32,000 nt of DNA from Candidatus Thorarchaeota archaeon (GTDB lineage: Archaea > Asgardarchaeota > Heimdallarchaeia > Hodarchaeales > Hodarchaeaceae). The translations under genes were made by a program, and so were the position numbers. The DNA lies in NCBI GenBank assembly GCA_048882505.1, contig JBHLRO010000002.1, forward strand, positions 150,001 through 182,000, read 5' to 3'. The first letter of the stretch is position 1. Each line of letters begins with the position of its first letter. Of the stretch, positions 1 to 17,961 are shown piece by piece. Below the pieces are notes generated by a model. It saw nothing but the letters and a program-made list of their open reading frames with translations. It had not been told where the DNA came from and made no database searches.

Positions 1-704
1 TATGTAGATTCACCTGATATAGCCGAGAAGTATTGACGAAGTGGTTCCTGCAATCCAAAAATAAGTACATTAGGACTCTCCATCGCATTAGGAAGCGGCA
101 GAAACGAGATAACACGGCCTTTTTTTGCCAATTCTGTTGCTGCAAATACGTCACGAGGATCTTGAGGATTCACGAATACTATATTGGAGGCCACTTGATG
201 GATACCAAACTGCAGATCATGGGCAACCGCAGTTAGAATAACAAGAGCGGTTAGAATTCCTTCTGATGTACGAGGGATAACGACATGAGCTTCTCGCGGA
301 GCTGAAAAAATCTGAAAAAAGCAGTCTAATTGGCGGTTTTGGGCATCAATAATCTCTCCAGACAGGAATTCAGTTAACATTTGTAAAATAATGTTCATAA
401 GGGGGATAATTTGACGTGCACTGCGATCGATGGGAATAAGAACAGTTGCTACAAGACTCTTATCCTGTGAGAATAGGAATATCATACGATGGTTTGAAAA
501 TCGGATGAAATGTACCTGTTCTCCTTCTGCGATCCTTTGTGAAAATAAATCGAGAGCCTGGGTCATTTGGGCACTTATTTTCGAGTTCTGAGTCAATTGC
601 CCATCCCCAGAACTGAATATGATGCGAGGGGAACCGCCGCTTTGATGGATCACGAGTATGTCGTTGAAATTGGGAAGTGCTGGTACGCTCTCCGAGTTTG
701 GCAA
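1..704 (-). CDS. Partial gene (runs off the left edge): N-terminal longin-like domain followed by a possible DENN-core-like alpha/beta domain
   Basis: Not in the ORF track because it has no stop inside the window. My translation shows an open minus frame from TTG 704 (alt. GTG 713; upstream in-frame TAA at 722-720) to base 1, 234 codons: LPNSESVPALPNFNDILVIHQSGGSPRIIFSSGD...ISAQMTQALDLFSQRIAEGEQVHFIRFSNHRMIFLFSQDKSLVATVLIP...IIPLMNIILQMLTEFL...FFQIFSAPREAHVVIPRTSEGILTALVILTAVA...NVLIFGL. SD-like GGAGTGA lies 5 nt before the TTG. The CDS is well supported; the domain calls are pattern-based. Confidence 0.8.
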   Translation of the reverse strand, partial: MPNSESVPALPNFNDILVIHQSGGSPRIIFSSGDGQLTQNSKISAQMTQALDLFSQRIAEGEQVHFIRFSNHRMIFLFSQDKSLVATVLIPIDRSARQIIPLMNIILQMLTEFLSGEIIDAQNRQLDCFFQIFSAPREAHVVIPRTSEGILTALVILTAVAHDLQFGIHQVASNIVFVNPQDPRDVFAATELAKKGRVISFLPLPNAMESPNVLIFGLQEPLRQYFSAISGEST

Positions 705-851
705 GAAAGTCACTCCGCGTTATTTACGAAGAATCCTAATTACTTAATATATGCAACTCATCACTCTATATCATTCATCATTATCTTTAATAAGTTTCAG
801 GTATTAAATACACCTCATCACTCAGGGCTCTGCAAGGGGTTGGCAATATCT

Positions 852-1523
852 TTAGTAAATTTCAGAGAGCCTCTCGAATACCCTTTGAGGGTTAAATCCG
901 CCACGACGAATCACCACGGGATTGGTGGGATTACTAAGATCTATGATGGTCGAGGGTTTATTCGGAGGAAGGTGTCCTGCGTCAATCGTTAACGGGATGT
1001 CTTCGGGTGAGAAATCCTGGTACACGCCTTCAAGGTTATAATTTACTGGTGCCCCTGTTTTATTTGCAGATGTTCCAATGATAGGACATCCTGCCTTCTG
1101 GATGATTTTCACAAGAACTTCATAGGATGGAACACGAAATGCGATTCTAAGGGGATCGTTTATGTTGAGAAGGGGAGAAATCTCCTCTTTCTGACATTTT
1201 AAAATCAGAGTAGGACTCGATTCGGAGAGTTGCCAAATTTCATGTAAGAAAGTATAGAATTGCGGGTCTGCATCGATATATTCCGGGATCATCTCTTTTG
1301 AAATCAGAAGACTCAAAGGCAAATCCAACGGACGCTCTTTAAGACGGAAGATACGGTATACATTATCACTATTCCACTTTAGCCCGCAGCACCCCAGACC
1401 ATAGCAAGTATCCGTTGGAAAAACCGCAATTACTCCTTTCCTCAAGGCCTCGGATGCTAAAGATACAATCTGCGGATTTGTTATTGCAATTCTTATGGGA
1501 AAGTTTCCCAATGCCAAAAGCAA
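852..1523 (-). CDS. tsaC: L-threonylcarbamoyladenylate synthase (Sua5/YrdC/TsaC), short form without the Sua5 C-terminal domain
   Basis: Motifs VFPTDTCYGLG, IFRLKERP, PLSLLI, IAFRVP, PIIGTSANKTG, PSTIIDL; TTG start with AGGTGA just upstream. Confidence 0.93.
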   Translation of the reverse strand: MLLALGNFPIRIAITNPQIVSLASEALRKGVIAVFPTDTCYGLGCCGLKWNSDNVYRIFRLKERPLDLPLSLLISKEMIPEYIDADPQFYTFLHEIWQLSESSPTLILKCQKEEISPLLNINDPLRIAFRVPSYEVLVKIIQKAGCPIIGTSANKTGAPVNYNLEGVYQDFSPEDIPLTIDAGHLPPNKPSTIIDLSNPTNPVVIRRGGFNPQRVFERLSEIY

Positions 1524-1567
1524 CTTTCACCTAACAAACTGGGAACTTATGGTTGCAGTGAACAAAG

Positions 1568-2320
1568 TTAAGCTTGTTGCTTCATCATTAAAACAATGAT
1601 ATCCCGAATGAGGCCTTCTACAGGTTTGATTACGCGAGAAACGCTCGCCGGTCTATATTCCTTTTTCAATTTGCCATCAACATCAACAATCTTGGTACGA
1701 TCTCCTGTAGAGAGAAGGACCTTTAGATCATCACGAGCTTCAAGGCAAGAAACTTCAACCATTCTAGCCGCCGCGTCACGAAGGTTTGCCGCCACACCTG
1801 ATTCGCTTAGTAATTTTCCCACCTCTAACGCAGAAATCCGTTGTTCTCTTGGTAAATCCATCTTGTTCAAAAGCAACTGAAAAGGAAGGACTCCATTGGA
1901 AAGCTTATCCCCAGCTAGATCATTAATCTCTTTCAAAGCATGTTTATTCTCTTCCCATCGTGACTTCTCCGAGTCAATGACCACAACAAGACCATGCGCA
2001 CCTCGTAACACGACCTTGCGTTGGCCTGAATGTCTTTCTTGTCCCGGTACGGTGAAAAGATGATACTTTATGATGGGAAGCCCTGCTGTGGTTCGACCAA
2101 GTCCAAAGATCGCTTGATCAAAGAATAAAGTTCGTCCTGTTGGATCCTCCAGCTTTAAGAACTTATAAACATTCTCTGGATCTTCAAGACTTTTTAATAC
2201 CTTGGTGATGGTCAGTGCTGTCGTCTTTCCTGCAAGAGTAGGACCCCAGAAAACGATCTTGACCGTTGGAACACCTTGATGGTCTCTCTTAACCACTTCA
2301 AACTCAGTTTTTACCTGCAT
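1568..2320 (-). CDS. MglA-type small GTPase
   Basis: KIVFWGPTLAGKTT (G1), RTLFFD, YHLFTVPGQ (G3), RKVVLRGAHGLVVVIDS, LLNKMDLP (G4). These follow the MglA signature KIVYYGP.L.GKTT / RTLFFD / HLYTVPGQ / RKLILKG / NKRDLP. Confidence 0.88.
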   Translation of the reverse strand: MQVKTEFEVVKRDHQGVPTVKIVFWGPTLAGKTTALTITKVLKSLEDPENVYKFLKLEDPTGRTLFFDQAIFGLGRTTAGLPIIKYHLFTVPGQERHSGQRKVVLRGAHGLVVVIDSEKSRWEENKHALKEINDLAGDKLSNGVLPFQLLLNKMDLPREQRISALEVGKLLSESGVAANLRDAAARMVEVSCLEARDDLKVLLSTGDRTKIVDVDGKLKKEYRPASVSRVIKPVEGLIRDIIVLMMKQQA

Positions 2321-2398
2321 AAGTAAATCTATTCTCCTAATTCGGGGCTTTGGATGGGCTATGGGTGTGAATTCGGGTTTGAGATGCGTTATTAAGGG

Positions 2399-2929
2399 TC
2401 ATCCAGTCTTTTTTTTGGACAAGATAGCTTGTGTTAGGCCGATAAAGATCTTGTCAATCTCTTCCCCTCCTTCCTTTGCCGACGTTTCATAATAAACCAT
2501 TTCGTGAGTTTTTGCAACCTCCACAGCATCTTCCATGGAGATTTTGCGATCTGGAAGGTCTTTCTTATTGCCAGCTAAAGCAACAGGAATCGAAGGATCA
2601 GGAATGTGCTTCCGAAATTCCGCAAGCCAGTCAGGAATCGCATCAAATGTCTTTTTATCATCAAGGGCGAACATTATGAGGCAAGCAGATGCACCACGGT
2701 AATAACTGGGGCGTAACTTACCAAAAAACTCTTGTCCCGCAGTGTCTACGAGAATGAGCTTGATTGAATTGTTATCAACTTGAATCTTCTTAGTAGTGAT
2801 GTCTACACCGAGCGTGGGGAGATAATTAGCCTCAAACTTGCCCTCAGCAAAGCGGCGGATTAACGAGGTCTTACCGACGCTGCCTGAACCGATGGCACAG
2901 ATCTTGAGCAAATATTCGTTTTCTTGCAC
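2399..2929 (-). CDS. Rab-like Ras-superfamily small GTPase
   Basis: G1 GSGSVGKT, G2 YLPTLGVD, G3 DTAGQ, YYRGA, G4 GNKKD, G5 ETSAK. The GTG at 2929 is preferred over the track's TTG at 2965, which overlaps the upstream stop. C-terminus KKTG has no Cys. Confidence 0.95.
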   Translation of the reverse strand: MQENEYLLKICAIGSGSVGKTSLIRRFAEGKFEANYLPTLGVDITTKKIQVDNNSIKLILVDTAGQEFFGKLRPSYYRGASACLIMFALDDKKTFDAIPDWLAEFRKHIPDPSIPVALAGNKKDLPDRKISMEDAVEVAKTHEMVYYETSAKEGGEEIDKIFIGLTQAILSKKKTG

Positions 2930-2954
2930 GATCAAAGACTTCCAAAGATTATAC

Positions 2955-3905
2955 TTAGAGTCCAAGCTTCGAAAGATCCTGGAGGGAAGCCCTCATATCT
3001 TCAATAAATTCATCACGCTCTGATCGCGTTTTTTGTCTGAGCATTTCTATGAAAAGTACTCGTCCTTTCTCCATGAAGAGTCTAACTTGGTATTGATCTG
3101 CAGGAAAAATCCCAGCGGGTAGATCGTCCATTGGCTCTAATTTAACGACCTCTTTCGCAAATAGTTTCAGGTGTTCTTTTATTGCGGAATAGACGGTGTC
3201 CCCTATGATCACAATCTCCCTTTCCATGTTCGGAGGTACTTCAATATCTCTTAATTTAGCAGTAACATCCTCAATAGAGGTAGGTGCAGCCTTGACGACC
3301 CGCGTTACCTCAACCTCGGTTTGGGTGGGTTTCGCACGAACTGTTGGAACGGGGCTAGGTCTGGCCTCAGGTTTTGGTCTAGAATGAATTGTAGGTTTAG
3401 GACGAGTTGACGGGGCAGGACTAGACCGAGCTATTGGTGCAGGTTTTGGTTGAGGAATCGCCGCAGATCGTGGGGTGGAGGATGGAGCAGGCTTCGGCCG
3501 AGCCGAAGGAGCAGGACGGGGAGTCGCAGTCGGGGTGGAAATAGTAGCCGCGGTCGAAGTTTGCTCTGGTACCGTAGATTTTGCCTCTGACTGTGGTGCG
3601 CTTTCCCCAAATAATGATAGGAAATCTGATCCCTCTAAACCAGGATCTAGTGATTCAATACGATAAACCATCCCATATTCCACTTGCCTTAGGTTTTGGG
3701 CGGCCTTGGCGCTAATAAATTTCCTACGAACTGGTGCTTGTTCCCCTTTCCAAATAAAAATCCGTCTTGCATTCTCATCAACGACTAGAAACACATTATC
3801 ATTTTTCAAATCTGCATATGATGAGATTTCGGATGGTTCTAAACTCCCATCGTCGGTAACAGTAAATTTCTTTATATTTTCGGAAGACCCGCTCAACAGT
3901 AACAA
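2955..3905 (-). CDS. Single-domain gelsolin-like protein with a Pro-rich linker and an unassigned C-terminal domain
   Basis: LKNDNVFLVVDENARRIFIWKGEQAPVRRKFISAKAAQNL fits the gelsolin-repeat core (LxxxDxF.LD...I(F/Y).W.G....EK..A...A..L). About 100 aa rich in P/S/T/A/R follow, then a ~105-aa beta-rich domain and a terminal helix. Confidence 0.85.
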   Translation of the reverse strand: MLLLSGSSENIKKFTVTDDGSLEPSEISSYADLKNDNVFLVVDENARRIFIWKGEQAPVRRKFISAKAAQNLRQVEYGMVYRIESLDPGLEGSDFLSLFGESAPQSEAKSTVPEQTSTAATISTPTATPRPAPSARPKPAPSSTPRSAAIPQPKPAPIARSSPAPSTRPKPTIHSRPKPEARPSPVPTVRAKPTQTEVEVTRVVKAAPTSIEDVTAKLRDIEVPPNMEREIVIIGDTVYSAIKEHLKLFAKEVVKLEPMDDLPAGIFPADQYQVRLFMEKGRVLFIEMLRQKTRSERDEFIEDMRASLQDLSKLGL

Positions 3906-3957
3906 CTCACGGTAATCCTAATATTGATATTATCCTTAATATCCAAAAACGGTGATA

Positions 3958-3965
3958 TTATATAA
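3958..3965. promoter_or_regulatory. Palindromic TATA box TTATATAA in the 94-bp divergent gap between the gelsolin unit and the Get4-like gene
   Basis: TTATATAA reads the same on both strands; 34 nt before ATG 4000 and 52 nt before TTG 3905, in an AT-rich gap. Confidence 0.5.
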
Positions 3966-3999
3966 ATTCGTTTTTGAATTCAATTCATTGTGAAAAACT

Positions 4000-4821
4000 A
4001 TGAGGCAAAACATTTGGGTTGAACGCGGACTAGAGGCCCTCCGACAAGGCCAATGGTTTGATGGTTTGCAGATGATTCAAGGGGCAGTTGAGCGGGCTGG
4101 TCGTCAAGACCAATCCGATGTAGTGGAACAGATTATTAACCAAATACTTCCCATTTTCCCAGAAGATTGGAATACATTGGTGTCTGAGTTAGTGCGCGAG
4201 ATTCTTACTCAAATTCGGGTTAGAAAATCCCAATTAGAATGGATTCGATTAATCCCCTTGATTTTTTCAGTATTAAGGAAAATCTCCCACGAACCCTGTG
4301 TTCATTTGGCAAGAAACCAGATTGTTATGGACGCTGGATTTCAAAATAACGATTTCCTCTTAAATCTGGAAGGAGTGATTGCCGAGGAAAAAAAAGCATT
4401 CCTCTTGGGTGACCTCTATTATTGTATCGCTGGGCTTTTTTCGAAAAAAAAAGATTACGTACGGTGTTATGAGGCCTTACAGAACTGGAAAGAGCATGGC
4501 CTAGTAACACCACATCTTGGAACTTATTTATTGCTGGCCGAGGTAAATGCCTATGAAATCGAAGAATGCACAAACTATATGGTTGCACCACAGAGCGAAG
4601 TTGACGAAGAGGCAGAAGATTATGCGATTCTAGGAGAAAGAATATGCCGTGCTGTCGAACTGACTGATCAGGTGGAGTTCAATAATATAATGTTCGAATT
4701 CAAGGAGCTAATCAACTCGGACGGGTTACTAAGAACACTATGTGACGGAATTAATGGAATATTGCATCCAACAAAAGGCTCCGGTCTTTTAGGATCGTTA
4801 TTTGGAAGCCGAGATAGCTGA
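4000..4821 (+). CDS. All-helical TPR-like protein, candidate Get4/TRC35 homolog
   Basis: 273-aa ORF with three segments resembling human GET4 as I remember it (see findings). The CDS is confident; the family call is untested. Confidence 0.6.
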   Translation: MRQNIWVERGLEALRQGQWFDGLQMIQGAVERAGRQDQSDVVEQIINQILPIFPEDWNTLVSELVREILTQIRVRKSQLEWIRLIPLIFSVLRKISHEPCVHLARNQIVMDAGFQNNDFLLNLEGVIAEEKKAFLLGDLYYCIAGLFSKKKDYVRCYEALQNWKEHGLVTPHLGTYLLLAEVNAYEIEECTNYMVAPQSEVDEEAEDYAILGERICRAVELTDQVEFNNIMFEFKELINSDGLLRTLCDGINGILHPTKGSGLLGSLFGSRDS

Positions 4822-5325
4822 GAGGATCTGTTGAACCGCCGCCATACCTGTTTCTGCTGTCATGATTTTTCTTCCTTCTCTCTCATCAATATAGCCTCTT
4901 TCTCCAATTTCTCTGCTCCACCCATTAATAGACGTAATACAAACCATGGGTTTATGATTTATCCACGAATAAGCAATTTCAGTAAGGGTTCCGGCTTGGC
5001 CTCCCACAGCTATGACCCCATCAGAAGCTAATGGTACCAAGGAGTTTCTTGTCCAGTGAAGAAAGGTGGGGATACGAATGGTCAAATACGGGTTTACCTC
5101 GGGATCTATCATCACATCAGTAGGGAGGATACCAACTGTTATTCCATTGTTCTCGAAAGCTCCCTTACAAGCAGCCTCCATAACCCCTCCTCGACCTCCA
5201 CACACCAAAATGGCGTTAGCTCGGGCTATTTCCTGACCGATCTCATAAGCAATTTCATACTGCCGTTCAGATCGAATCTGGGAATCACCGATAATGCCGA
5301 TTTGTACCTGATTTCTGATTTTCAT
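4798..5325 (-). CDS. LOG/TIGR00725-family Rossmann-fold nucleotide-binding protein
   Basis: IGIIG, LVCGGRGGVMEAACKGA, TVGILP, RN, DGVIAVGGQAGTLTEI. Confidence 0.88.
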   Translation of the reverse strand: MKIRNQVQIGIIGDSQIRSERQYEIAYEIGQEIARANAILVCGGRGGVMEAACKGAFENNGITVGILPTDVMIDPEVNPYLTIRIPTFLHWTRNSLVPLASDGVIAVGGQAGTLTEIAYSWINHKPMVCITSINGWSREIGERGYIDEREGRKIMTAETGMAAVQQILSAISASK

Positions 5326-5899
5326 CTTTATTCCCTTCTATGTACTTTTTCTTTCCATTAAGAGATGGTAGGATCTGGTGTTGGGCTCCGAAAAACCTCT
5401 GTTGAAGAAAATGCGGCATTAAATGGTCCAAGAACACCGCAAGTGCACTTACTTCTGAATGTGGTTGATTTCCAACCCCAATATTCCAGGTCGCTAGCTG
5501 AAATACTTTGCCAGGGATTTTTTTTCCTCCAACAACGATCAAGAGTTTTGTCCGTTGAAGTGGGTCCTTTTGCAGGCGATGAAATGATTCGGATTGCTCA
5601 AAAGTAAGGAGATTTTCACCATACATTGTCAAATGCATTATATTTCCTCCGGAATCTTTCCATTCTGTTAATATCATATTCCAATCTTCGAACGGCCTTT
5701 TGTCAAGTTTAAATTCACCTCCCCATTGGTTGACTACCTTATCAATGGTATGATCAAGGGTGGAATCTTCGTCTCCGGCGATTATAATCCGAGACGCCCC
5801 AAATGCTCGAGCAACCAGAATCAAATGACTGGTGACCCGCCTATCCCGCTCCCGTCGGTGGCCAATTCTCAGAACTGTTACCAAAAAGGAGGACTCCAT
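5285..5899 (-). CDS. trm56: tRNA (cytidine(56)-2'-O)-methyltransferase (archaeal SPOUT)
   Basis: LRIGHRRERDRRVTSHLILVARAFGA, WGG.F, HLTMYG, VVGGKKIP, WNIGVGNQPHSEVSALAVFLD. Confidence 0.95.
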   Translation of the reverse strand: MESSFLVTVLRIGHRRERDRRVTSHLILVARAFGASRIIIAGDEDSTLDHTIDKVVNQWGGEFKLDKRPFEDWNMILTEWKDSGGNIMHLTMYGENLLTFEQSESFHRLQKDPLQRTKLLIVVGGKKIPGKVFQLATWNIGVGNQPHSEVSALAVFLDHLMPHFLQQRFFGAQHQILPSLNGKKKYIEGNKDENQKSGTNRHYR

Positions 5900-5911
5900 G
5901 GGAGTCGCGAG

Positions 5912-6481
5912 TCAAGCGGACGCAAGTACTGCTCGAATGCTTGTAGCCAGCTTGGCGAAACTTTCATCTACATTCGCCCCTGTCTTAGCTGAAGTTTCCA
6001 AATAAGGTATTTCATAATGCATATTGAACTGGTTTTTCAGATCAGCTATGAACCCTTCGACTTCTTCCTGCGTTACATAATCTTTAGCTTCTCCACTATC
6101 CCTCAGGTCTACTTTATTTCCCAGGACTGCGATAGGCATCGCCCCCCGGCCACTGTTCCTGAATAATTCATCGATCCAATTTGTTAAGTTGGTAAATGAA
6201 TCTCTTCGGGTTATGTCAAACACCAGTAATCCCCCGTGCGATCCTTTATAGTATAATTCTCTAACTGAATTGAAACGGGGTTGCCCTGCCAGATCCCAGA
6301 TTTGAAATTTGACTGTCCGTGTATCTACTCCATCTTGGATAACCGCTTTTTTAACGGCAAAATCCGCACCAATAGTCATCACATAGCCAGAGGAAAATTG
6401 TTTTCCCAGATATCGTTCGCGTAAGGCGGTTTTACCGACAGCACCGTCTCCTAATAGACATATTTTCATAAGCAGGGTCAT
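5912..6481 (-). CDS. Rab-like Ras-superfamily small GTPase
   Basis: G1 GDGAVGKT, TIGADF, KFQIWDLAGQPRF, YYKGS, LVFDIT, G4 GNKVD, G5 ETSAK. Start placed at ATG 6481 because GGTGA (6490-6486) lies 4 nt upstream. No C-terminal Cys. Confidence 0.95.
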   Translation of the reverse strand: MTLLMKICLLGDGAVGKTALRERYLGKQFSSGYVMTIGADFAVKKAVIQDGVDTRTVKFQIWDLAGQPRFNSVRELYYKGSHGGLLVFDITRRDSFTNLTNWIDELFRNSGRGAMPIAVLGNKVDLRDSGEAKDYVTQEEVEGFIADLKNQFNMHYEIPYLETSAKTGANVDESFAKLATSIRAVLASA

Positions 6482-6726
6482 TTTTTCACCAGATTGGTAG
6501 TGCAAGTGCTATGTTTCTAATAACATCTAGTTATTCAACCTACATGCCGTTCTCTGAACGCTAACATATAAAGACTTCCGAACCGCAAGCTTAATGTCCC
6601 CTCGTCTTTTGGTGAAGCTATGAGGCATCCTCTCGCAAACGAGATTGGTGGTGTTTTCTTGAAAAAAGCCAGTACCCATGCCTCTTAATCCATTGTTTTT
6701 TCGATTTCTGACAATTTTATTAAGAA

Positions 6727-9030
6727 TTGGTGTTCCATTTGGCCGGTTTGAAGTCATCCTCTGATGCAATGAAAGAAGTTGTTGAATTACTCGGATTATC
6801 CGAGGATCAAACAAAGATTTACTTTTCTGTACTCTCGCTAGGTGCGGCTACGCTAGGCCAGATCAGCTTACTATCTGGACTTGATTATCTAAAAACTCAG
6901 GAGGCGCTTGAGCTATTGGTGGGGAGTAGCCTGGTGAGACGGATTCCTGGCAAAGTAGGACGATACGTTGCGTTGACCCCATTTTTAAAAGCTTTTTTAC
7001 TTACCTACGATCCCATTACACTGGTGAGTATAAGAAAGGAATCAGCAACTGAGCTTAAAGCTCAAGTGAATCAAATCACGGAACACATGACAAAAGAAAT
7101 CGAAGTGGTAGGCCAAAATACCGATCAATTGGAAAAGGATTTTTTAAAAGGCCTAGAACCTGTTTTGAGTAATTTCGGATCAATTATTGATTCCACGCGC
7201 GGGCTCCTAAATACTACGGAACAACAAATCCGTGCAAGTGCCCAGAAACTTCAATTCACCAGCAATCAACTAGCTTTACGATCACAAAAATTTACTGATG
7301 AGGTGAAAAGGGCCAATATCGAAAAAATAAACCACGTCCCAGAATTGTTTCATCCTTTCATTCCTAAAGTTGATGATGCTCTAAAGACAAGGATCCTTGT
7401 TATTGACCAGGAACTTGATAGGATAATATCAGCTCAAAAGGCCGATCTACAAAATTTACAGACCGACCTTTCAATCAAACTGGGAAAAACATCGGATGAT
7501 ATTGTCAATTTACTCCAAAAAATTGAAGATGACAATAAATCCGAGAAGGAAGGCATACACAAAAAGGCGATAGAAACAACAATATATCTCAATGTTTTAA
7601 AGGAAAATGCAACCAATAATAAGACACACTTCAAAGATATCCGAGATGGCTATAAGAATATCGATACAACGGTCACGGAGTTCTTTAAAGAGCTTGACAC
7701 CAAGCTTATGAAAATGGAGCCTTTGATAGCGAGCGTTTTGGCAGATATACAGAACAGAAAGATGTTTCGGGGGAGAGACGAATTTCTCGATATTTTGACT
7801 AACATCGAAAATACCCGATTATCAATCCAAACAGATCTTAGAGACAATTCCGAACTTTCAGAAAAGATTGATGGCCTTAATCGATTATTAGAAGAGATTG
7901 AGATGAAGATTTTGGATGCCACGGAAAAAGGGCTTACGCAGGTTGAAACCATTCTAACAGAAGAAAGTCAGCTTTTTTCTCGGAAGCTTCAAAAAATGTC
8001 GGTTGAATTGTGTTCAAAGAATCGCCCTAAAATACAAGAAATTTTTGAACAGACTCAGAGGAGTTTAATAACACAGTTAAGGGAAATCGAACAGGTATTG
8101 GATACTAAACATGATTTATTCCTGACCACGCTTCAAGATAAAACCCATAATTTCTCGCAAGAATTAAACACTCTAATAGGCACATTTACAGGTGACTTTC
8201 GAAAGCAGATTGAGAGCCATTTTGAGAAGAGTGGGATATTCGACTCTAAAACCACTGAATTAGGGTGGAGTATTCAGGAACTCGACAATATCACATTCCG
8301 TCAACTTCCTGAGCTTACTAGAGCGTTTTCAGATGTTGATAGCCTTCAGGAATCTTTTGACCGTTATATTTTGGGCTTTGACGCCATATTTTCTCATTTT
8401 ACAGAGAATCAAGTTAATTTTTTTGCTGAGGCACTTGATAAAACCAAAAAATCTCTTGGTTCTCACATCAAAAGGATCGAAAATCAATTAGAGCAAGAAA
8501 TTTCAGCACTTACATTTAGCATACGACAAATGAAGCAAAAGCTAAGCAAAATAATTCAAACCTCCCAATTGACAGATATTTCGGGTATTGATCCCACACT
8601 TCTAAGCACAGATTTGGTCGTAGGAGAGCCCGTCATCATTATGCTTTTACGGGATCTTACTGTTCGTGCAAAAGCGTCTCTTACTATATTGATGCCTAGG
8701 CCCGAGCTTCAGACCCTTATACAAGCTTCAAAGTTACCCTATCGAACGCGAGTGTCAATCATTGGTGATTTTCAAAAAGTGCCACGGTCGACACTGAAGA
8801 AGATTCTGGCGGCTGGAAATACCCGTTTAAAACAACTAGATGGTGTCGATTATTGGGCCTGTATTCGAGATGCTGAGGAAATGCTCATCTGTCCTGAGCC
8901 CAAAGATCCCACGAACGAAGAACTGATAGGAGTGATTTCCACAAATCAAAATTTAGTGGACCTGTTTTCACAGGAAGTGATAACGTATACTACGCGTTCC
9001 CGCGAGATATTGATCCAGGATATTGAATGA
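6727..9030 (+). CDS. TrmB-family winged-HTH protein with a ~520-aa helical/coiled-coil insert and a C-terminal TrmB/PLD-like domain
   Basis: LGLSEDQTKIYFSVLSLGAATLGQISLLSGL...ALELLVGSSLVRRIPGKVGRYVALTP is TrmB HTH-like. A long E/K/Q/L-rich helical middle follows, then RAKASLTILMP...RVSII...WACIRDAEEMLI...GVISTNQNLVDLF. Start uncertain (TTG 6727 or a later ATG). Confidence 0.8.
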   Translation: MVFHLAGLKSSSDAMKEVVELLGLSEDQTKIYFSVLSLGAATLGQISLLSGLDYLKTQEALELLVGSSLVRRIPGKVGRYVALTPFLKAFLLTYDPITLVSIRKESATELKAQVNQITEHMTKEIEVVGQNTDQLEKDFLKGLEPVLSNFGSIIDSTRGLLNTTEQQIRASAQKLQFTSNQLALRSQKFTDEVKRANIEKINHVPELFHPFIPKVDDALKTRILVIDQELDRIISAQKADLQNLQTDLSIKLGKTSDDIVNLLQKIEDDNKSEKEGIHKKAIETTIYLNVLKENATNNKTHFKDIRDGYKNIDTTVTEFFKELDTKLMKMEPLIASVLADIQNRKMFRGRDEFLDILTNIENTRLSIQTDLRDNSELSEKIDGLNRLLEEIEMKILDATEKGLTQVETILTEESQLFSRKLQKMSVELCSKNRPKIQEIFEQTQRSLITQLREIEQVLDTKHDLFLTTLQDKTHNFSQELNTLIGTFTGDFRKQIESHFEKSGIFDSKTTELGWSIQELDNITFRQLPELTRAFSDVDSLQESFDRYILGFDAIFSHFTENQVNFFAEALDKTKKSLGSHIKRIENQLEQEISALTFSIRQMKQKLSKIIQTSQLTDISGIDPTLLSTDLVVGEPVIIMLLRDLTVRAKASLTILMPRPELQTLIQASKLPYRTRVSIIGDFQKVPRSTLKKILAAGNTRLKQLDGVDYWACIRDAEEMLICPEPKDPTNEELIGVISTNQNLVDLFSQEVITYTTRSREILIQDIE

Positions 9031-9038
9031 TTGGCCAA

Positions 9039-9791
9039 TTATTTTATCTGCCTTAGGATATCGCTTATCTCATCTACACTGACTCTTTTGGTATTTAAAA
9101 CCTGAATAGCCCCGTTCTTAGCAGTGAATTCAACATTTCCTTGTGTGTATTCAACGGTATACTTTTCGCCTGTTCTTGAAAGGAAGACATCCCCTAATTT
9201 GTTTAGTGCAACTACAAAACGGCCGACCAATTTTTCCTCGGCACTAAGCCCATATTCAGTTTCAATCGGAGCAATAGCTTCTGGGGTTGTCTCCAATGAG
9301 GACACTCGATCGTCATGAGTATCGTGAGTCAAAAAGGAAGGAACATACTCGAGAGCTGGTTTAGGTGTTTTTTTTGAATAGGTTTCGAGTCCAGTTTCCT
9401 GTTTGGATTCTAGATCGCGATGGCCAGCTCGAGTCTCCAAATCAGGTTCGATATATGCTTCAGTTGGACGTTCGTAAGAATAATGGTGTCCTACCTGCAA
9501 GAGGATGTCGGGAACCGTATCATCCTTCGAAAGGTCAACTGCAAAGTTCATTCCAACCCGTATATCAGAATCTGGTAGCCTGAAACCACTCTTGGCTATG
9601 GAGTGTACATGACGTTCAATGATTCTCTTTGATATGATATTGAAATTATCGGGTATATGAACGGTTATCTTTTCTGAGGGTTCATCAATGATCAAATAGG
9701 CTTCATCTTGAGGGGGTCGCCCTTTACCGCTAGAAATCACGAATTCATCAGAACGCCAAATAGCAGTGACCGTTAAACTTCTCGAACTCAT
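9039..9791 (-). CDS. Hypothetical protein with a degenerate gelsolin-like N-terminal domain, acidic linker and small C-terminal alpha/beta domain
   Basis: Residues 29-70 align without gaps to residues 36-77 of the gelsolin protein at 2955-3905. Confidence 0.55.
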   Translation of the reverse strand: MSSRSLTVTAIWRSDEFVISSGKGRPPQDEAYLIIDEPSEKITVHIPDNFNIISKRIIERHVHSIAKSGFRLPDSDIRVGMNFAVDLSKDDTVPDILLQVGHHYSYERPTEAYIEPDLETRAGHRDLESKQETGLETYSKKTPKPALEYVPSFLTHDTHDDRVSSLETTPEAIAPIETEYGLSAEEKLVGRFVVALNKLGDVFLSRTGEKYTVEYTQGNVEFTAKNGAIQVLNTKRVSVDEISDILRQIK

Positions 9792-9805
9792 AACTTAGAT
9801 TCACC

Positions 9806-10699
9806 TTATTCTTCATCCTCGTCTCGCAAAATCTTCAAGGCTTCTCGTAGTGATAGGGAGAGCATGTCATCTTCTCCCTGGTCTGTACCTGCTTCATCCT
9901 TGGCAAGAAGCATATCTGTTAGCGATGAGGCGGCAGGTTCTGGAGAGGGAGGGGTAGTCGGTTGATCCATTCCACTCGACCTTAATGCTTCATCAAGAGC
10001 TTGTAATTGCTTTGGAGGTGTTGCTACAGACTCGGGAGTTCTTGGAGTAACAGGCGTAACTGGTTTGGACGAAGGAGTAGGTGGGGAAGGAGTCACGGTG
10101 GGAGTGGGAGACGGAGTCGTCGGTATGGGGGTAGATGGAGTCGGTGTCGGAGTGGGAGACGGAGTCGTCGGTATGGGGGTAGATGGAGTCGGTGTCGGAG
10201 TGGGAAACGGAGTCGTCGGTATGGGGGTAGGCGGAGTCGGTGTCGGTGTGGAAGTAGTAAGTATTTCCTCCAAAGGGGAGACAGGCGCCGATACTGGTTG
10301 TGTTGCAGGTCCAGATTTGAGTATTTCCTCTAAAGGGGATATCGGGGTTTCTTCTGGCATAATTTTTGCGGATAGACTGGATTGAGTGCTGGTTAGAAAC
10401 TGCTGAAACTTGGTTGCATCTTGTAGCGATTGCCATTGCTTTTGCGCCAATCTGGCCGTATCACGGACTCCTTTCCAGTAGTCCGCAGGTTTACCTTCTT
10501 GATCAGCAACAGGAATGTCCATACCTAAAGTTTGGGCTAACGAAGAACTTATTCGAGCATTAGCTTTTGATTCAATTTGAGCGATAAAATTAACGAGTGA
10601 ATTAACATTCTGGCTTGCTGTTAGATGGGCCAAGAGTTGCTGTACCAATTCTAATGTTTCAATAGCAGATTTTATGTAGGCTGTTGCTGGAGTACTCAT
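9806..10699 (-). CDS. Hypothetical protein: helical N-terminal domain (DYWKGVRDTARL), Pro/Thr tandem-repeat linker, acidic helical C-terminus
   Basis: 297-aa ORF with ATG start, 14 bp upstream of the next same-strand gene; complex non-repetitive termini flank the repeat. Confidence 0.8.
   Translation of the reverse strand: MSTPATAYIKSAIETLELVQQLLAHLTASQNVNSLVNFIAQIESKANARISSSLAQTLGMDIPVADQEGKPADYWKGVRDTARLAQKQWQSLQDATKFQQFLTSTQSSLSAKIMPEETPISPLEEILKSGPATQPVSAPVSPLEEILTTSTPTPTPPTPIPTTPFPTPTPTPSTPIPTTPSPTPTPTPSTPIPTTPSPTPTVTPSPPTPSSKPVTPVTPRTPESVATPPKQLQALDEALRSSGMDQPTTPPSPEPAASSLTDMLLAKDEAGTDQGEDDMLSLSLREALKILRDEDEE
10101..10244. repeat. 3 x 48-bp in-frame tandem repeat encoding TPTPSTPIPTTPSPTP-type 16-mers
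   Basis: Unit ggagtgggagacggagtcgtcggtatgggggtagatggagtcggtgtc starts at 10101, 10149 and 10197. Copies 1 and 2 are identical; copy 3 has 3 mismatches. Confidence 0.95.
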
Positions 10700-12061: not shown

Positions 12062-13411
12062 ATGTCATTCGTCAATGAGCTATTTGATCGTTTGAAAAAA
12101 TCTACTACAGCGAATGAGGTTCAAGCAGCGTTAGCAGCCTTGGAAGGAATTCAGGATCCTAACAGCCGCAGTCGGGCGGCCCAAGAGACTGTGGATCTGA
12201 TTTCAAAGTATGGCAGAGAGCTTTCAGAACGCGGGCAATACAAAAATGCTGCTTACCAGTTTTATTCAGGGGCTCAGCTTATCCAGAACTTTCTCACGGA
12301 TCCAGAGGCAGAAAAACAATGGTTACGATCAGCCGCCGCCGCCCTGGCCAAGGCTTCACAGGATCACATCCAATGGGATGATTTACTCGGTGGGGCAGCT
12401 TGTATGACCATTTCCTCATTATTAAGGCTACAAACAGGGGATTGGAATGTTTCTCAACATTTAGATGCCTTCGTTAAAGGCCATGACTTTTCTTCAGATC
12501 AGGCCGCCACAGCATGTCTTTATATTCCCTATGATTTAGCGGGGGCCGTAAATCCTGAGAATCCGAACCCAAGTCTTTTACAGCGGGCATCAGGATATAC
12601 CGAAAACTATCTTTTACAAACAAAACCCGCGATCATGTTTTCAGAAGGAATTAAACAAGCAATTGAGGTTACTCGTCAGAAGTTGATTGATGTAGTTAAG
12701 TTTCCTTCAATTCGAGCACAATTCGAGTTTGATCACGATGTTATCTTTGGAGAGGAGTTTAAATTCCTGGTCAAATTGGAGAATGTAGGAGACGGTATTG
12801 CGACAAACGTATCTGCACACCTTTCGATCCCTCAAAAAGTAACTGTTGTTGCTGGGGTCGAGACTATATCGGTTGGGCAGCTCAATCCTGGGGCCAATAG
12901 TCAGGCTGAATTTACATTGCTTTGTTCCTCGGGTGAAGGACAGGCCGAAATTGCATTAGAGGTTCCCATTACCGTTGTCTATGAAGATATTTTATTGAAC
13001 AAGAATTCTCTTTCACTGGGAGCTGCCATGATCTCTATTCGATCAGAAAAGCAAGCCCAAAGACTTTTTTCCCAATTTAACCCGTTAAAAACGGGCATTA
13101 TGGAAAAAACAGCTCCTCTCAGAACCGCCATAACTCCGGATGTCCATCCGATTGTAGGTAGCCTTGATGCCATCATAGAGAATATTGTATCGAGTACCGA
13201 GGCTGATATTATAAATGGTGATTTCGTAGCGGCCTCTTTGGGTATAAATCAATTGGAGAAGATAGAGAGTTTCATAGAACCGTTGGTCTCATTTCTGCAG
13301 ACCTATGATGGACAAGTCCAAACGCTGCTGAATAGTTTCAAAGAGCTTGATGAGACTACATCGAGCTTGGTTCAGTCTTTAGAGAATGCGGAAAAACTGT
13401 TAGACGATTAA
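12062..13411 (+). CDS. Hypothetical protein: TPR/SNAP-like helical repeats + CARDB/COG1361-like Ig domain + C-terminal helical bundle
   Basis: YGRELSERGQYKNAAYQFYSGAQL is TPR/SNAP-like. VIFGEEFKFLVKLENVGDGIATNVSAHLSIP...VGQLNPGANSQAEFTL...ITVVYED is a classic Ig/CARDB pattern. No signal peptide or TM segment. GGAG lies upstream of the ATG. Confidence 0.75.
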   Translation: MSFVNELFDRLKKSTTANEVQAALAALEGIQDPNSRSRAAQETVDLISKYGRELSERGQYKNAAYQFYSGAQLIQNFLTDPEAEKQWLRSAAAALAKASQDHIQWDDLLGGAACMTISSLLRLQTGDWNVSQHLDAFVKGHDFSSDQAATACLYIPYDLAGAVNPENPNPSLLQRASGYTENYLLQTKPAIMFSEGIKQAIEVTRQKLIDVVKFPSIRAQFEFDHDVIFGEEFKFLVKLENVGDGIATNVSAHLSIPQKVTVVAGVETISVGQLNPGANSQAEFTLLCSSGEGQAEIALEVPITVVYEDILLNKNSLSLGAAMISIRSEKQAQRLFSQFNPLKTGIMEKTAPLRTAITPDVHPIVGSLDAIIENIVSSTEADIINGDFVAASLGINQLEKIESFIEPLVSFLQTYDGQVQTLLNSFKELDETTSSLVQSLENAEKLLDD

Positions 13412-15102: not shown

Positions 15103-17961
15103 CTATGCTGGGGTGATATAGGTAAAGTTGTCGATAAAGCTGTCAAAGGAACTGGGGCCAGTAGCATCACCAAAGCCATAATCTGCCCAATATCTATCCG
15201 TGAAGAAGCGTGGTTGCCATCGATATCTTACCCAGTAATTTACTGTCCACGGTGTTGCACTGAGTTCAGTTGCTCCAAGAGCACCTGTTGAAAAACTAGC
15301 CAAGGTGTACTCTTGAGAATTGAATAATGCTATGATATAAACTGTTATACTATCCGTTGGATTTAATGCCGTCTGAGGTGGCGTCCAAGAAGAGGAGGTT
15401 CTTTCTACGTATATATCTTCAACACCAGTAACTAGTGCTACGGGTGAAGATGTCAACTGATTACTTCCTACGAAAACTCGAATTCCCCATTGAATTACCG
15501 GGGATTCAATATTAATTCGTGGCGTTGAAACGGTCATTTGACTAAAAGTTGGAGTTGTGGACAAAAGAAAGTTTGAAGTCATATAGAACTTGTCACTGAT
15601 AGTAATTGTGCCAGGAGGAGTAGAAAATTTAACAAGTCTCTCATATGCTACATTTGTGTCACTAACGGCCTCGAATTCTAATTCAACGTTTAGATCATGC
15701 ATACTGTAAGGTTGATTTGACGCATTCTCGAAAGTCATAGTAATATTGGCGATTGCACCTTCTCCAATGGTGAAGTTTGTACTGAAAGTTATCCAGGTAC
15801 TGTTTGTAACCCCACTTGGATTACTCCAAACTTGCGTCAAATTAAACGTAGTGCTATTTAATTTTGGAAAATCAGTCGAAAAATCAGCGGTACTGCTAAG
15901 AATTGTGAGATTTAGTTTCGCCATTTCTGCTCCAGTACCTGAACCAGCTTGATTTCTAATTGCAAAGTCTAATTGTTCACCTATTGTGCCAGTAATTTTT
16001 ACTGAATTAGGTACAACCACGATGTTCGGCTGACCCTGCGCAACAACTGGAACCATATGAAAAGGTACCCCATCCTGCTCGTTATTAGTGCCTTGGTCTT
16101 GGGCAAATATATAGTAATCAAGTCTTGGGTCCAAATCATCATTGATTACACCTGCAGGAATCGTTCCACTCCAAAGCGTCGGACTCGGGGTTTCAGAATT
16201 GCTGTCAACACTACTGTTTCCAGAGATTCGGGTCATAGATGTCGATAAGAAGGTTCCCCCTGAGTCATAATCTCTATAATATAATGTTACTGTTCCTGTT
16301 TCACTTCCTTCGGCCCCAAAGGTAGGATCATTGTCAAAAATTGTGGCATCTACCTGTAAGGCAAAATTCTCAGTAGCTGACGTGATAGCTGCGTGACTAA
16401 TGACTGGTTTCTGAACATCGGGGATTATAATATGATTTGGAGTGTTTTCTCTACCTTCGTACGAAACGTGCCCACTATATCTGTCAGTGGCGTTAAAGAA
16501 GTAGTCTAATCCGTGGATATTAATATCAAAACTCCAAATTATCCAAGAAAATTGACTTCCTGAAATAAATGGTGAGAGAGGTATCCATTGTTCAGTTTTT
16601 CCTCCCAGGTCATCAGTTTGACGATAATATAACATTACCTTACTTTCATTAACCTGATCCTTATCTGTTATTGTCGCTGAGATGTTGATAAAATTGTCGT
16701 TAATCGAAGCGGTAGGGATTGGTGTGTGGACAATGTCTGGTCCGAAATTATCGGTAATTGGAATTTGCTTTAAGACTCCACTAGTGTTTGCTATATTTCC
16801 AGAGTCATCAACGGCTACAACATAACTTTCGAGCCCATTATCGAGAGCTACTGAATCAACATAACCTGAAGATATAGTTCCTGTCCAATTATTTGTTACT
16901 CCAGATCGAGACATCGTAACTGGGTTATAAACATCTGAAGAACCACTAATTCGATGATACAGAAATACTGATTCAACTTCCGAAGCACCGACTACTTGAG
17001 TTCCTCCATCAAGAATTTCAACAGTTAAAGAAATACTCTCTCCTACCTCTCCAGTTTGGTTATTTGGATAAGGATCGGTAATCCATAAATCATCTATATT
17101 CGGAGCGATATAGTCATTATCAATAACGAAACTGCCAGGTTCAACGACCGCTGATAACCCAGCATAATCATAGGCTGTGATTCGGATATAGTAGGTTCCG
17201 TTATCTAGTCCTTCTGTTGTGTAATTAAACGTATTCCAACTCCATTGCCATAGAGATGAGTCAAAAATAACTTTAGTTTGATCAATAGATGAAAAACCTG
17301 GATCCGTGGAGACCTCATATGTCACATTCTTAATACCTGCATTATCATCTACAATGGGGGAAATCGTATTCGTCTTACGTATAGTACCGATTGTTCCCGT
17401 GAATGAGATGTCAGGTTGGTCTTTGATCAGTCTCATATCGTTTGACGATACCGTCTCTTCTTCAAGGCTGGTATCTAGTGTTGCCCCTTCATCAGTTTGA
17501 AGAGTTAATCGGTAGAAAACGGTTTGGTTATCGTTTTCAACCGGAATCGGGAATCGAACCGATAAATCCTTGTCCGTGGTAAGAGGTGGAATTGGGTATG
17601 GATTGCTATTCGAAATATTCTGGAAAGATTCTACTCCTGCGGTGATTTCAGTCCAGGGGCCGCTCACAGTTGACCCCCAAAAAACCTTCATCGAGAGAAG
17701 ATTGATTTCCCCCGTTCCTACATTTGCAACCGTAATCGTACCTTTACCAAATCCTTCCCCTTGATCTAGATTTTTGGTGTAATCTACATCATAGATAACA
17801 AATGCATCATTAATTTGCAAATTACTAGTTGGTGATAATAGGGGGAGAACAACGAGGAATATTGCAGCGGAAGCGGCCACTGCAAGCCCGATAAGTAGAA
17901 TTACTGCAATAACAGGAGAAATAGCTCGTTTTTTGTTCTTCATCAATCTGCTAGGCTGCAT
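15103..17961 (-). CDS. Large (952 aa) type IV pilin-like surface protein with a class III signal peptide and multiple Ig-like domains
   Basis: KKRA|ISPVIAVILLIGLAVAASAAIFLVV is an archaeal prepilin cleavage site plus hydrophobic helix. About four Ig-like modules follow (P.I.H...I.ATI.D...V.LYYR...W.GTI...LDYY..A.D), with many N-x-S/T sequons. GAGGT lies 7 nt before ATG 17961. Confidence 0.88.
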   Translation of the reverse strand: MQPSRLMKNKKRAISPVIAVILLIGLAVAASAAIFLVVLPLLSPTSNLQINDAFVIYDVDYTKNLDQGEGFGKGTITVANVGTGEINLLSMKVFWGSTVSGPWTEITAGVESFQNISNSNPYPIPPLTTDKDLSVRFPIPVENDNQTVFYRLTLQTDEGATLDTSLEEETVSSNDMRLIKDQPDISFTGTIGTIRKTNTISPIVDDNAGIKNVTYEVSTDPGFSSIDQTKVIFDSSLWQWSWNTFNYTTEGLDNGTYYIRITAYDYAGLSAVVEPGSFVIDNDYIAPNIDDLWITDPYPNNQTGEVGESISLTVEILDGGTQVVGASEVESVFLYHRISGSSDVYNPVTMSRSGVTNNWTGTISSGYVDSVALDNGLESYVVAVDDSGNIANTSGVLKQIPITDNFGPDIVHTPIPTASINDNFINISATITDKDQVNESKVMLYYRQTDDLGGKTEQWIPLSPFISGSQFSWIIWSFDINIHGLDYFFNATDRYSGHVSYEGRENTPNHIIIPDVQKPVISHAAITSATENFALQVDATIFDNDPTFGAEGSETGTVTLYYRDYDSGGTFLSTSMTRISGNSSVDSNSETPSPTLWSGTIPAGVINDDLDPRLDYYIFAQDQGTNNEQDGVPFHMVPVVAQGQPNIVVVPNSVKITGTIGEQLDFAIRNQAGSGTGAEMAKLNLTILSSTADFSTDFPKLNSTTFNLTQVWSNPSGVTNSTWITFSTNFTIGEGAIANITMTFENASNQPYSMHDLNVELEFEAVSDTNVAYERLVKFSTPPGTITISDKFYMTSNFLLSTTPTFSQMTVSTPRINIESPVIQWGIRVFVGSNQLTSSPVALVTGVEDIYVERTSSSWTPPQTALNPTDSITVYIIALFNSQEYTLASFSTGALGATELSATPWTVNYWVRYRWQPRFFTDRYWADYGFGDATGPSSFDSFIDNFTYITPA

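Follow-up and report, generated by a model that had tools for sequence, protein, structure and literature searches.

A gelsolin-GTPase gene string kept in one order of Asgard archaea, within an island of eukaryote-like genes that is collinear only inside a genus

Does a dense run of eukaryote-like genes in an Asgard archaeal genome mark a functional module, or have its members become neighbours in some other way? The question is raised by the first 10.7 kb of a stretch of 32,000 nucleotides from a Candidatus Thorarchaeota archaeon (G000:C2:150001-182000, in a genome of 4.32 Mb and 83 contigs), which we call the window; all coordinates below are window positions unless a contig label is given. 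Twelve genes, g1 to g12, occupy positions 1-10699, the island, and all 12 open reading frames (ORFs) are present where an earlier note on this DNA had placed them. That note counted eight of them as signalling or cytoskeletal components (a longin/DENN-like gene, an MglA-type GTPase, two Rab-like GTPases, a gelsolin, a second gelsolin-like protein, a Pro/Thr-repeat protein and a Get4-like protein) and added a TrmB-type regulator. It suggested that their co-location marks a module linking GTPase switches, actin remodelling and membrane-protein delivery, or simply reflects the abundance of such genes, and it proposed to compare gene order among relatives and gene density with the genome background. 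The account that we favour, with modest confidence, is a different one: the island is a genus-level juxtaposition of three tight co-directional strings and two single genes, and only the first string has been evolutionarily maintained.

The strings g5-g4-g3-g2-g1, g9-g8-g7 and g12-g11 lie on the minus strand, and the single genes g6 and g10 on the plus strand. The first, which we call the core string, begins with a gelsolin of the 1DGelX type (g5, 2955..3905) and continues with a Rab-like GTPase (g4, 2399..2965), an MglA-type small GTPase of 250 aa with a C-terminal extension (g3, 1568..2320), a protein of the Sua5/YrdC family of t6A tRNA modification (g2, 852..1523; Pfam PF01300, 106.5 bits) and g1, whose N-terminal 237 codons fall within the window (1..713) and whose full gene of 626 aa extends beyond it (L001:13833-15713, that is window -1167..713). 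Its gaps measure 78 nt (g4-g3), 44 nt (g3-g2) and 138 nt (g2-g1); g5 and g4 are 25 nt apart if g4 starts from the GTG at 2929 and overlap by 11 nt if it starts from the TTG at 2965, and the GTG, which the orthologues favour, is the probable true start. In the other strings 12 nt separate g9 from g8, g8 and g7 overlap, and g12 lies 14 nt upstream of g11; g6 is divergent from g5 and convergent with g7, and g10 is divergent from g9.

Among 20 other genomes of the genus, anchored on the single-copy g6, 20 of 20 have the complete order as far as their contigs extend: dph6, g1 to g5, g6, g7 to g9, g10, g11-g12, PRT, a gene of 449 aa and GGR. The order is kept despite identities of just 31-47% for g6 and g11. 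Such synteny does not discriminate between the explanations, because collinearity extends equally to the flanks dph6, PRT, the 449-aa gene and GGR, and we rejected genus-level synteny as evidence for a module.

A more distant comparison comes from f2, the sister family in the same order. One f2 contig (G022:C333) carries on one strand g5 (38% identity), g4 (41%), g3 (66%), a 157-aa ORF, a subtilase, g1 (30%) and a gene for a pilin-like protein; g5, g4 and g3 adjoin in the same order and strand, and g1 with the pilin-like gene follows 3.6 kb downstream of g3, the 157-aa ORF and the subtilase taking the position of g2. All the other neighbours are different (Swi5/Mnd1-like, alpha/beta hydrolase, subtilase, iPGM), and neither g2 nor any of g6-g12 was found at this locus. 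A second f2 contig (G023:C131) keeps g5-g4. In this small sample the order g5-g4-g3...g1 is kept where the surrounding synteny has been lost; the 10.7 kb as a whole lacks such conservation, being collinear only within the genus, flanks included. The gene-order comparison came out divided, with the core string, pilin-like gene included, kept in f2 and the complete island order confined to the genus, and the claim that the island forms one module fell with it: the Get4-like gene, the second Rab-like gene, the TrmB gene, g11 and g12 are unlinked to the core string beyond the genus.

It is worth asking what would still speak for the whole 10.7 kb as one machine of GTPase switches, actin remodelling and GET-type membrane-protein delivery, given that the f2 locus, where none of g6-g12 stands with the core, largely refutes it. 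Its order is complete across 20 species of the genus in spite of the divergence of g6 and g11, but the housekeeping flanks dph6, PRT and GGR share that property. The presence of a GET4-like protein would suit it, yet distant members of the g6 family have unrelated neighbours and the homologues of Get3 are encoded on contigs elsewhere. The island has a TrmB regulator in its middle, but in a related metagenomic contig that otherwise keeps the island order g7 is missing, hence dispensable, and g10 is halved, to just 334 aa. Genes of tRNA modification are interleaved in the strings. A search for a shared operator in the promoter regions g5|g6, g9|g10 and upstream of g12 (up to 19 orthologous loci) found only a TATA-like element, TTTAAAAA, common to the three. 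There remains the exceptional local density, and with all this taken together we regard the single machine as highly improbable.

The density itself is real. The genome holds 56 small GTPases by Pfam Ras matches, or 61 by a hidden Markov model (HMM) built in this analysis, with a mean of 0.15 GTPases per 10.7 kb, and six gelsolin-like or g11-type genes. The island is one of four regions with at least three GTPases and the sole 10.7-kb window with at least four, or at least five, GTPase and gelsolin-like genes. Random placement yields some window with at least three GTPases at P 0.40 and four such clusters at P 0.0008, and therefore GTPase genes cluster generally in this genome. When all 67 genes are placed at random, a window with at least five occurs somewhere in the genome at P 0.0008 and one with at least four at P 0.034. 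By simulation the island stands above the genome background (P about 0.001, or about 0.03 without g11-type genes), and the second suggestion of the earlier note, mere abundance, fails as an explanation from background only, with the reservation that it was this same window that supplied the definition of the g11-type class. The other three regions with at least three GTPases are C6:43701-58401, C12:102101-114301 and C13:85201-97701.

What, then, are the members of the core string? In g5 a gelsolin domain (residues about 12-103) is followed by a Pro-rich linker and a strongly conserved domain X (about 196-316). Residues 12-103 match Asgard 2DGel3, a gelsolin-like domain protein, villin and adseverin in the PDB (2e-5 to 1e-3), and g5 finds a Pfam-positive gelsolin on C21 by phmmer (2e-15); its own Pfam Gelsolin score, 15.2 bits, is under the cut-off of 21. 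The PDB matches and the conserved domain X bear out the expected gelsolin and place it in the 1DGelX type. Full-length relatives were found in most sampled Asgard families, and the architecture occurs in all Asgard phyla (PMC7444086). The Thor 1DGelX protein severs and nucleates actin without calcium control (PMC7444086); by analogy with it, since the biochemistry is known for the Thor protein only, g5 is a predicted actin regulator of this type.

The two Rab-like GTPases were likewise recovered. The best PDB relatives of g4 (Pfam Ras, 157.2 bits) are Rab22A/30/23 (9e-36), and those of g9 (5912..6505, minus strand, head of the second string; Pfam Ras, 151.6 bits) are the Thorarchaeota Rab 7EZB (4e-41), followed by Rab1A and Rab7. 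We name both proteins Rab-like rather than Rab because the C-terminal Cys prenylation motif of eukaryotic Rabs is absent from g4, which ends in LSKKKTG, and from g9, which ends in AVLASA. The top four PDB relatives of g3 are all MglA (2e-19 to 1.5e-16), and its translation contains a P-loop GPTLAGKT, RTLFFD with the switch-I Arg, TVPGQ (G3, TxxGQ) and NKMD; structures and motifs together sustain the MglA-type assignment. Across the genus g3 is 80-85% identical, and g3, g4 and g9 fall at 68-85% as against 39-62% for Sua5 and Trm56. MglA acts with a roadblock partner (PMC10933270); no roadblock (MglB) gene adjoins g3, and the 12 PF03259 matches of the genome all lie outside the window. A shorter g3 paralogue (C18:14598-15197) is flanked by two roadblock genes (C18:14132-16191), the classical MglA/MglB layout.

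The last member, g1, is confined to the order: 24 of its 24 genomes sampled carry the gene, and none of the 234 further Asgard genomes sampled does, which is also the range of the cluster. Searches of g1 against the sequences of solved structures gave no match, and Pfam matched none of 15 g1 family members, PF01368/PF02272, DENN, folliculin and NPR2-type models included. In the AlphaFold2 (AF2) model (mean predicted confidence, pLDDT, 69.8) a beta-beta-alpha-beta-beta-beta-alpha unit at residues 17-114 (pLDDT 44-70) is followed by an alpha/beta and helical region (123-311), a disordered linker of about 75 residues and two more alpha/beta domains. The N-terminal unit resembles sigma-adaptins, the GATOR1 chain 7t3a_B, Mon1-Ccz1 and a TRAPP subunit at Z 5.4-6.5, and PAS-like folds equally well; judging by this model it is possibly longin-like (longin/roadblock-like). 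For the body, all the significant Foldseek matches are DHH/DHHA1 proteins (RecJ, GAN/Cdc45, PAP phosphatase; 16 chains, E 4e-5 to 7e-4). VIA-align gives Z 7.2-8.6 against this group, and an Atlas match to DHHA1 covers residues 387-515 (TM 0.55 by row), so that residues of about 110-515 fit the two-domain arrangement DHH + DHHA1, with middling scores that speak for fold resemblance only. None of the catalytic motifs DxD, D, DHH, D and GGGH is found among the invariant columns of a 15-sequence g1 alignment. Of the longin/DENN label given to g1 earlier, the longin half survives as a weak topological likeness of the N-domain; the DENN half, with no DENN protein among the structural matches listed, no Pfam DENN match and DHH/DHHA1 folds in its place, is unsupported as far as such listings can tell, and we set it aside.

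Downstream of g1, on the same minus strand, lies a gene whose product resembles type IV pilins and has RAISPVIATVLMIGLVVVAG as its N-terminal motif (L001:12636-13529, window -2364..-1471), and such a gene is next to g1 on the same strand in f2 too (L127:16843-17694). One could read the core string from this end, as a motility or surface unit in which a type IV pilus-like structure is under the control of the MglA-like GTPase, with g1 as partner, and the gelsolin is a bystander. The pilin-like gene itself, which has the class III signal motif here and follows g1 in both families, would agree with it, as would the control of pilus-dependent motility by MglA in Myxococcus (PMC9481161). Yet about half of the genomes of the genus have no pilin-like gene between g1 and dph6; the Pfam scores of that gene (19.8 and 21.7 bits) are under the cut-off of 25.2, genes for a pilus assembly ATPase or platform were not seen in the vicinity, and we give a pilus unit only a very slim chance.

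We return to the maintained core string, and to the points that weigh against it. The f2 evidence consists of one 23-kb contig and two fragments from two incomplete metagenome-assembled genomes. Outside the order, 19 g3 homologues keep no island neighbour, save one that adjoins a g4-like gene, and 20 full-length g5 orthologues in other Asgard families have no adjoining GTPase and no g1, g6 or g12; therefore any coupling can be specific to the order at most, rather than ancestral. Unrelated genes have found room inside the string (Sua5 in this genome, subtilase in f2), the longin assignment of g1 is weak at the pLDDT and Z values given above (44-70 and 5.4-6.5), and the three strings have no regulatory motif in common, which counts against the wider island and lends no support to the core. 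In its favour, a g3-like (66%) and a g4-like (49%) gene adjoin in f22, another Asgard family, though in convergent orientation.

The alternative to a maintained string is that there is no functional coupling at all and that the co-location, g5-g4-g3-g1 included, is a historical accident kept by slow rearrangement in one order. The small GTPases are abundant (56-61 genes) and generally clustered, with any one region of three or more expected at P 0.40, and most genes for eukaryotic signature proteins (ESPs) in Asgard archaea lie outside conserved neighbourhoods (preprint 10.1101/2020.10.19.343400; PMC10933270); with 1DGelX orthologues elsewhere standing without a GTPase neighbour, unrelated genes inside the string and a single informative outgroup contig, there are grounds to think of an accident. 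It is less easily reconciled with what happened at the divergence of the two families (f1/f2), where g1, g5 and g4 have fallen to 30%, 38% and 41% identity and the other neighbours have been replaced, yet the string keeps its order, strand and tight spacing, nor with the joint density (P about 0.001). Moreover, two of the six gelsolin-like or g11-type genes in this genome stand immediately before a gene for a small GTPase, which by a rough estimate would happen by chance at about 0.01. An accident appears to us rather unlikely, though it has to be taken seriously.

If the core string is indeed maintained, it would be logical to suggest how its products might work together. The genes g5-g4-g3-g2-g1 would be co-transcribed; one or both GTPases would switch the localisation or activity of a calcium-independent actin-severing and nucleating 1DGelX protein; and g1 might serve as a platform for the GTPases, be it a GTPase-activating protein (GAP), a guanine nucleotide exchange factor (GEF) or an effector, much as roadblock MglB does for MglA. 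The other genes, the GET4-like one included, would be neighbours by descent within the genus and form no common machine. We infer the GTPase control of the gelsolin and the platform role of g1 from gene order and by analogy with the MglA-MglB and longin-GEF precedents (PMC10933270), and co-immunoprecipitation with Lokiactin, which brings down gelsolins and an ARF GTPase (PMC13716822), is consistent with this reading. A complex prediction of g4 with domain X of g5 (190-316), run without controls, scored 0.00 against a mark of 0.32 and speaks neither for nor against binding. That 1DGelX, the Rab-like and MglA-like GTPases and g1 constitute a linked archaeal unit, in which a GTPase switch on a longin-type g1 platform directs an actin-remodelling gelsolin, we put forward as a tentative and rather speculative proposal. 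Of the functional module first suggested for this DNA, a GTPase-actin link stays plausible for one four-gene string, and the link to Get4 and membrane delivery has no support from gene order. We found no description of a gelsolin-GTPase string of this kind in the searchable literature.

The second gelsolin-like protein of the earlier note, g11 (9039..9791, minus strand), deserves separate treatment. An N-terminal domain of about 100 aa, in which the motif LLQxGHxY is conserved, is joined by a variable linker to a small C-terminal domain. Even at E up to 10 Pfam does not match it, searches of the sequences of solved structures found nothing with either g11 alone or its family profile, and hhalign of its family against the g5 family returns 2%; a joint "gelsolin" HMM seeded with the g5 and g11 N-domains was dropped as circular. 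The similarity that g11 does have within the genome is to the third domain (residues 306-385) of a protein on C33, outside that protein's two Pfam gelsolin repeats. In an Atlas model of g11 residues 1-104 the gelsolin-type fold appears as leads only (TM 0.65-0.74 by row). The C33 protein (C33:5913-7073, L083), with two Pfam gelsolin repeats and a C-terminal g11-type domain, is a fusion that ties this domain to the gelsolin system; the suggestion of a gelsolin-like protein holds to the extent of this shared domain, and finds no backing in sequence as a claim of gelsolin homology.

The g11-type domain stands alone in 97 of 251 sampled Asgard genomes. In the present genome a protein of 95 aa with nothing but this domain is encoded 36 nt upstream of a Ras-like GTPase (C1:406063-406941; L082:4064-4942), a second pair, unrelated to the core string, that is present in all 10 genus genomes looked at and was seen at none of 15 standalone homologue loci outside the genus. 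In at least 12 genomes of a distant Asgard family, f11, the distance from a small g11-type gene to a 1DGelX orthologue is about 3.7-4.6 kb (for example G106:C1:1448833-1453741 and G101:C108:32192-37304). At the three f11 loci that we looked at, an aminotransferase and a gene weakly related to the 449-aa one separate the pair, and this proximity may reflect an old linkage of g11-type and 1DGelX genes.

The Get4-like claim concerns g6 (4000..4821, plus strand), an all-alpha solenoid outside the core string. Pfam, its own GET4 model (PF04190) included, does not match g6 at E up to 10, and a search of the single sequence and of the profile against the sequences of solved structures yielded no significant match, only designed helical repeats. 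The AF2 model, built from 23 family members (pLDDT 88.6), is all-helical; by fold search it resembles a proteasome lid subunit (Z 12.9), Sec17 (12.2), other solenoids (10-13) and Get4/TRC35 (8.8-9.0, root-mean-square deviation about 10 A), and Foldseek gave no match at E <= 0.001. A word-index search for homologues gave only four close relatives, and an exhaustive HMM search was therefore used: against 1.84e9 proteins the family HMM has just 21 matches, and the match at E 1.7e-7 is a eukaryotic GET4 protein that itself scores 112 bits on PF04190. The hhalign values for g6, over 236-238 columns, are 95.7% with that protein and 93.6% with ten aligned GET4 proteins, and in the reciprocal direction an HMM of ten GET4 proteins finds g6 as its sole, weak match (E 0.038) among the 14,374 ORFs of the genome. 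On these profile searches, which uphold the earlier label, g6 is probably a remote homologue of GET4. A distant member of the g6 family has unrelated neighbours, and three Get3/ArsA homologues of the genome are unlinked to the island (C18:39336-40247, C25:12094-13038, C25:13128-14060). A search of the searchable literature for Asgard and Get4 together turned up no account of an archaeal GET4-like protein, and g6 offers a starting point of its own for tracing how tail-anchored protein targeting arose.

Housekeeping genes are interspersed with all these: besides g2, the second string contains g8 (5285..5899), an aTrm56 tRNA 2'-O-methyltransferase of Cm56 (Pfam PF01994, 117.8 bits), and ends with g7 (4798..5325), a SLOG cluster-4 protein of LOG/DprA-like type (Pfam PF18306, 135.7 bits), both on the minus strand. 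No paralogue of g2 was found in the genome, where it is the sole copy, and Sua5 lies inside the core string in this genus only. Both Rab-like genes share a string with a gene of tRNA modification, g4 with Sua5/YrdC and g9 with aTrm56, a pairing that may be a coincidence or an unexplained pattern; outside the genus, the g9-Trm56 pairing is absent in two genomes of the same class and convergent in f22, and f2 contigs are too short to tell. The expected TrmB regulator is g10 (6727..9030, plus strand), identified by a TrmB-type helix-turn-helix at residues 22-85 (Pfam PF01978, 33.8 bits), behind which come a long helical region and the C-terminal domain. Nothing supported a signalling or cytoskeletal role for g12 (9806..10699, minus strand), a low-complexity Pro/Thr-repeat protein with a 48-bp tandem repeat in 3.1 copies (96% matches, 10101-10251) whose orthologues were found across the genus only.

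The divergent intergenic regions g5|g6 (3906-3999, 94 nt) and g9|g10 (6506-6726, 221 nt) are short here and in the closest relative, and measure 220-440 nt and 330-1000 nt, respectively, in other species of the genus. The linkers of g1, g5, g11 and g12 vary strongly in length among species. Downstream of the island, a protein of 952 aa (15103-17961) has a weak archaeal pilin N-terminal match (E 0.004) and one of 449 aa (12062-13411) a weak CARDB match; both are probably surface proteins.

The core string addresses the question whether GTPase control of actin predates eukaryotes, and it does so with a small, testable protein set: a tractable 1DGelX gelsolin, two GTPases and one candidate regulator. 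Conserved operons are few in Asgard genomes, and therefore GTPase-partner pairs are hard to guess (PMC10933270; 10.1101/2020.10.19.343400). The locus also carries a more general lesson, that dense eukaryote-like "islands" should be read as modules only when an outgroup with decayed background synteny is at hand for comparison.

It remains to set these genes beside the systems they resemble. Like eukaryotic GET4/TRC35 (PF04190), g6 is an all-alpha solenoid of similar length that aligns over about 236 columns; it differs in having no Pfam match, a structural Z under that of other solenoids, no identified Get5/Sgt2 partner and unlinked Get3 homologues. The body of g1 resembles the two-domain fold of the DHH/DHHA1 phosphoesterases and their inactive relatives (RecJ, GAN/Cdc45, NrnA), and unlike the phosphoesterases it is without the catalytic motifs and adds a possibly longin-like N-domain, the linker of about 75 residues and a C-terminal alpha/beta domain. 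With the products of the bacterial mglA-mglB operon (Myxococcus, Thermus) g3 has in common the intrinsic Arg in RTLFFD and the TxxGQ G3 motif, whereas its length of 250 aa with the C-terminal extension, the lack of an adjoining MglB and its partners, a Rab-like GTPase and a gelsolin, set it apart. The layout of g5, a gelsolin/cofilin-type domain followed by the unrelated domain X, is that of the Asgard 1DGelX from Thorarchaeota SMTZ1-83 (Akil et al. 2020, PMC7444086); that paper mentions no operons, and g5, in its order only, heads a string of Rab-like and MglA-like GTPases. The nearest precedent for the string as a whole is the known exception to the scattering of ESP genes, the operon of a roadblock (LAMTOR1-like) protein, a Rab-like GTPase and a DENN protein found in most Asgard archaea (Liu et al., preprint 10.1101/2020.10.19.343400). 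Both join a Rab-like GTPase to a putative regulator, of longin/roadblock type there and possibly so in g1; the core string, present in one order only, has no roadblock gene, shows no DENN signal by Pfam or among the listed fold matches of g1, and adds a gelsolin and an MglA-like GTPase.

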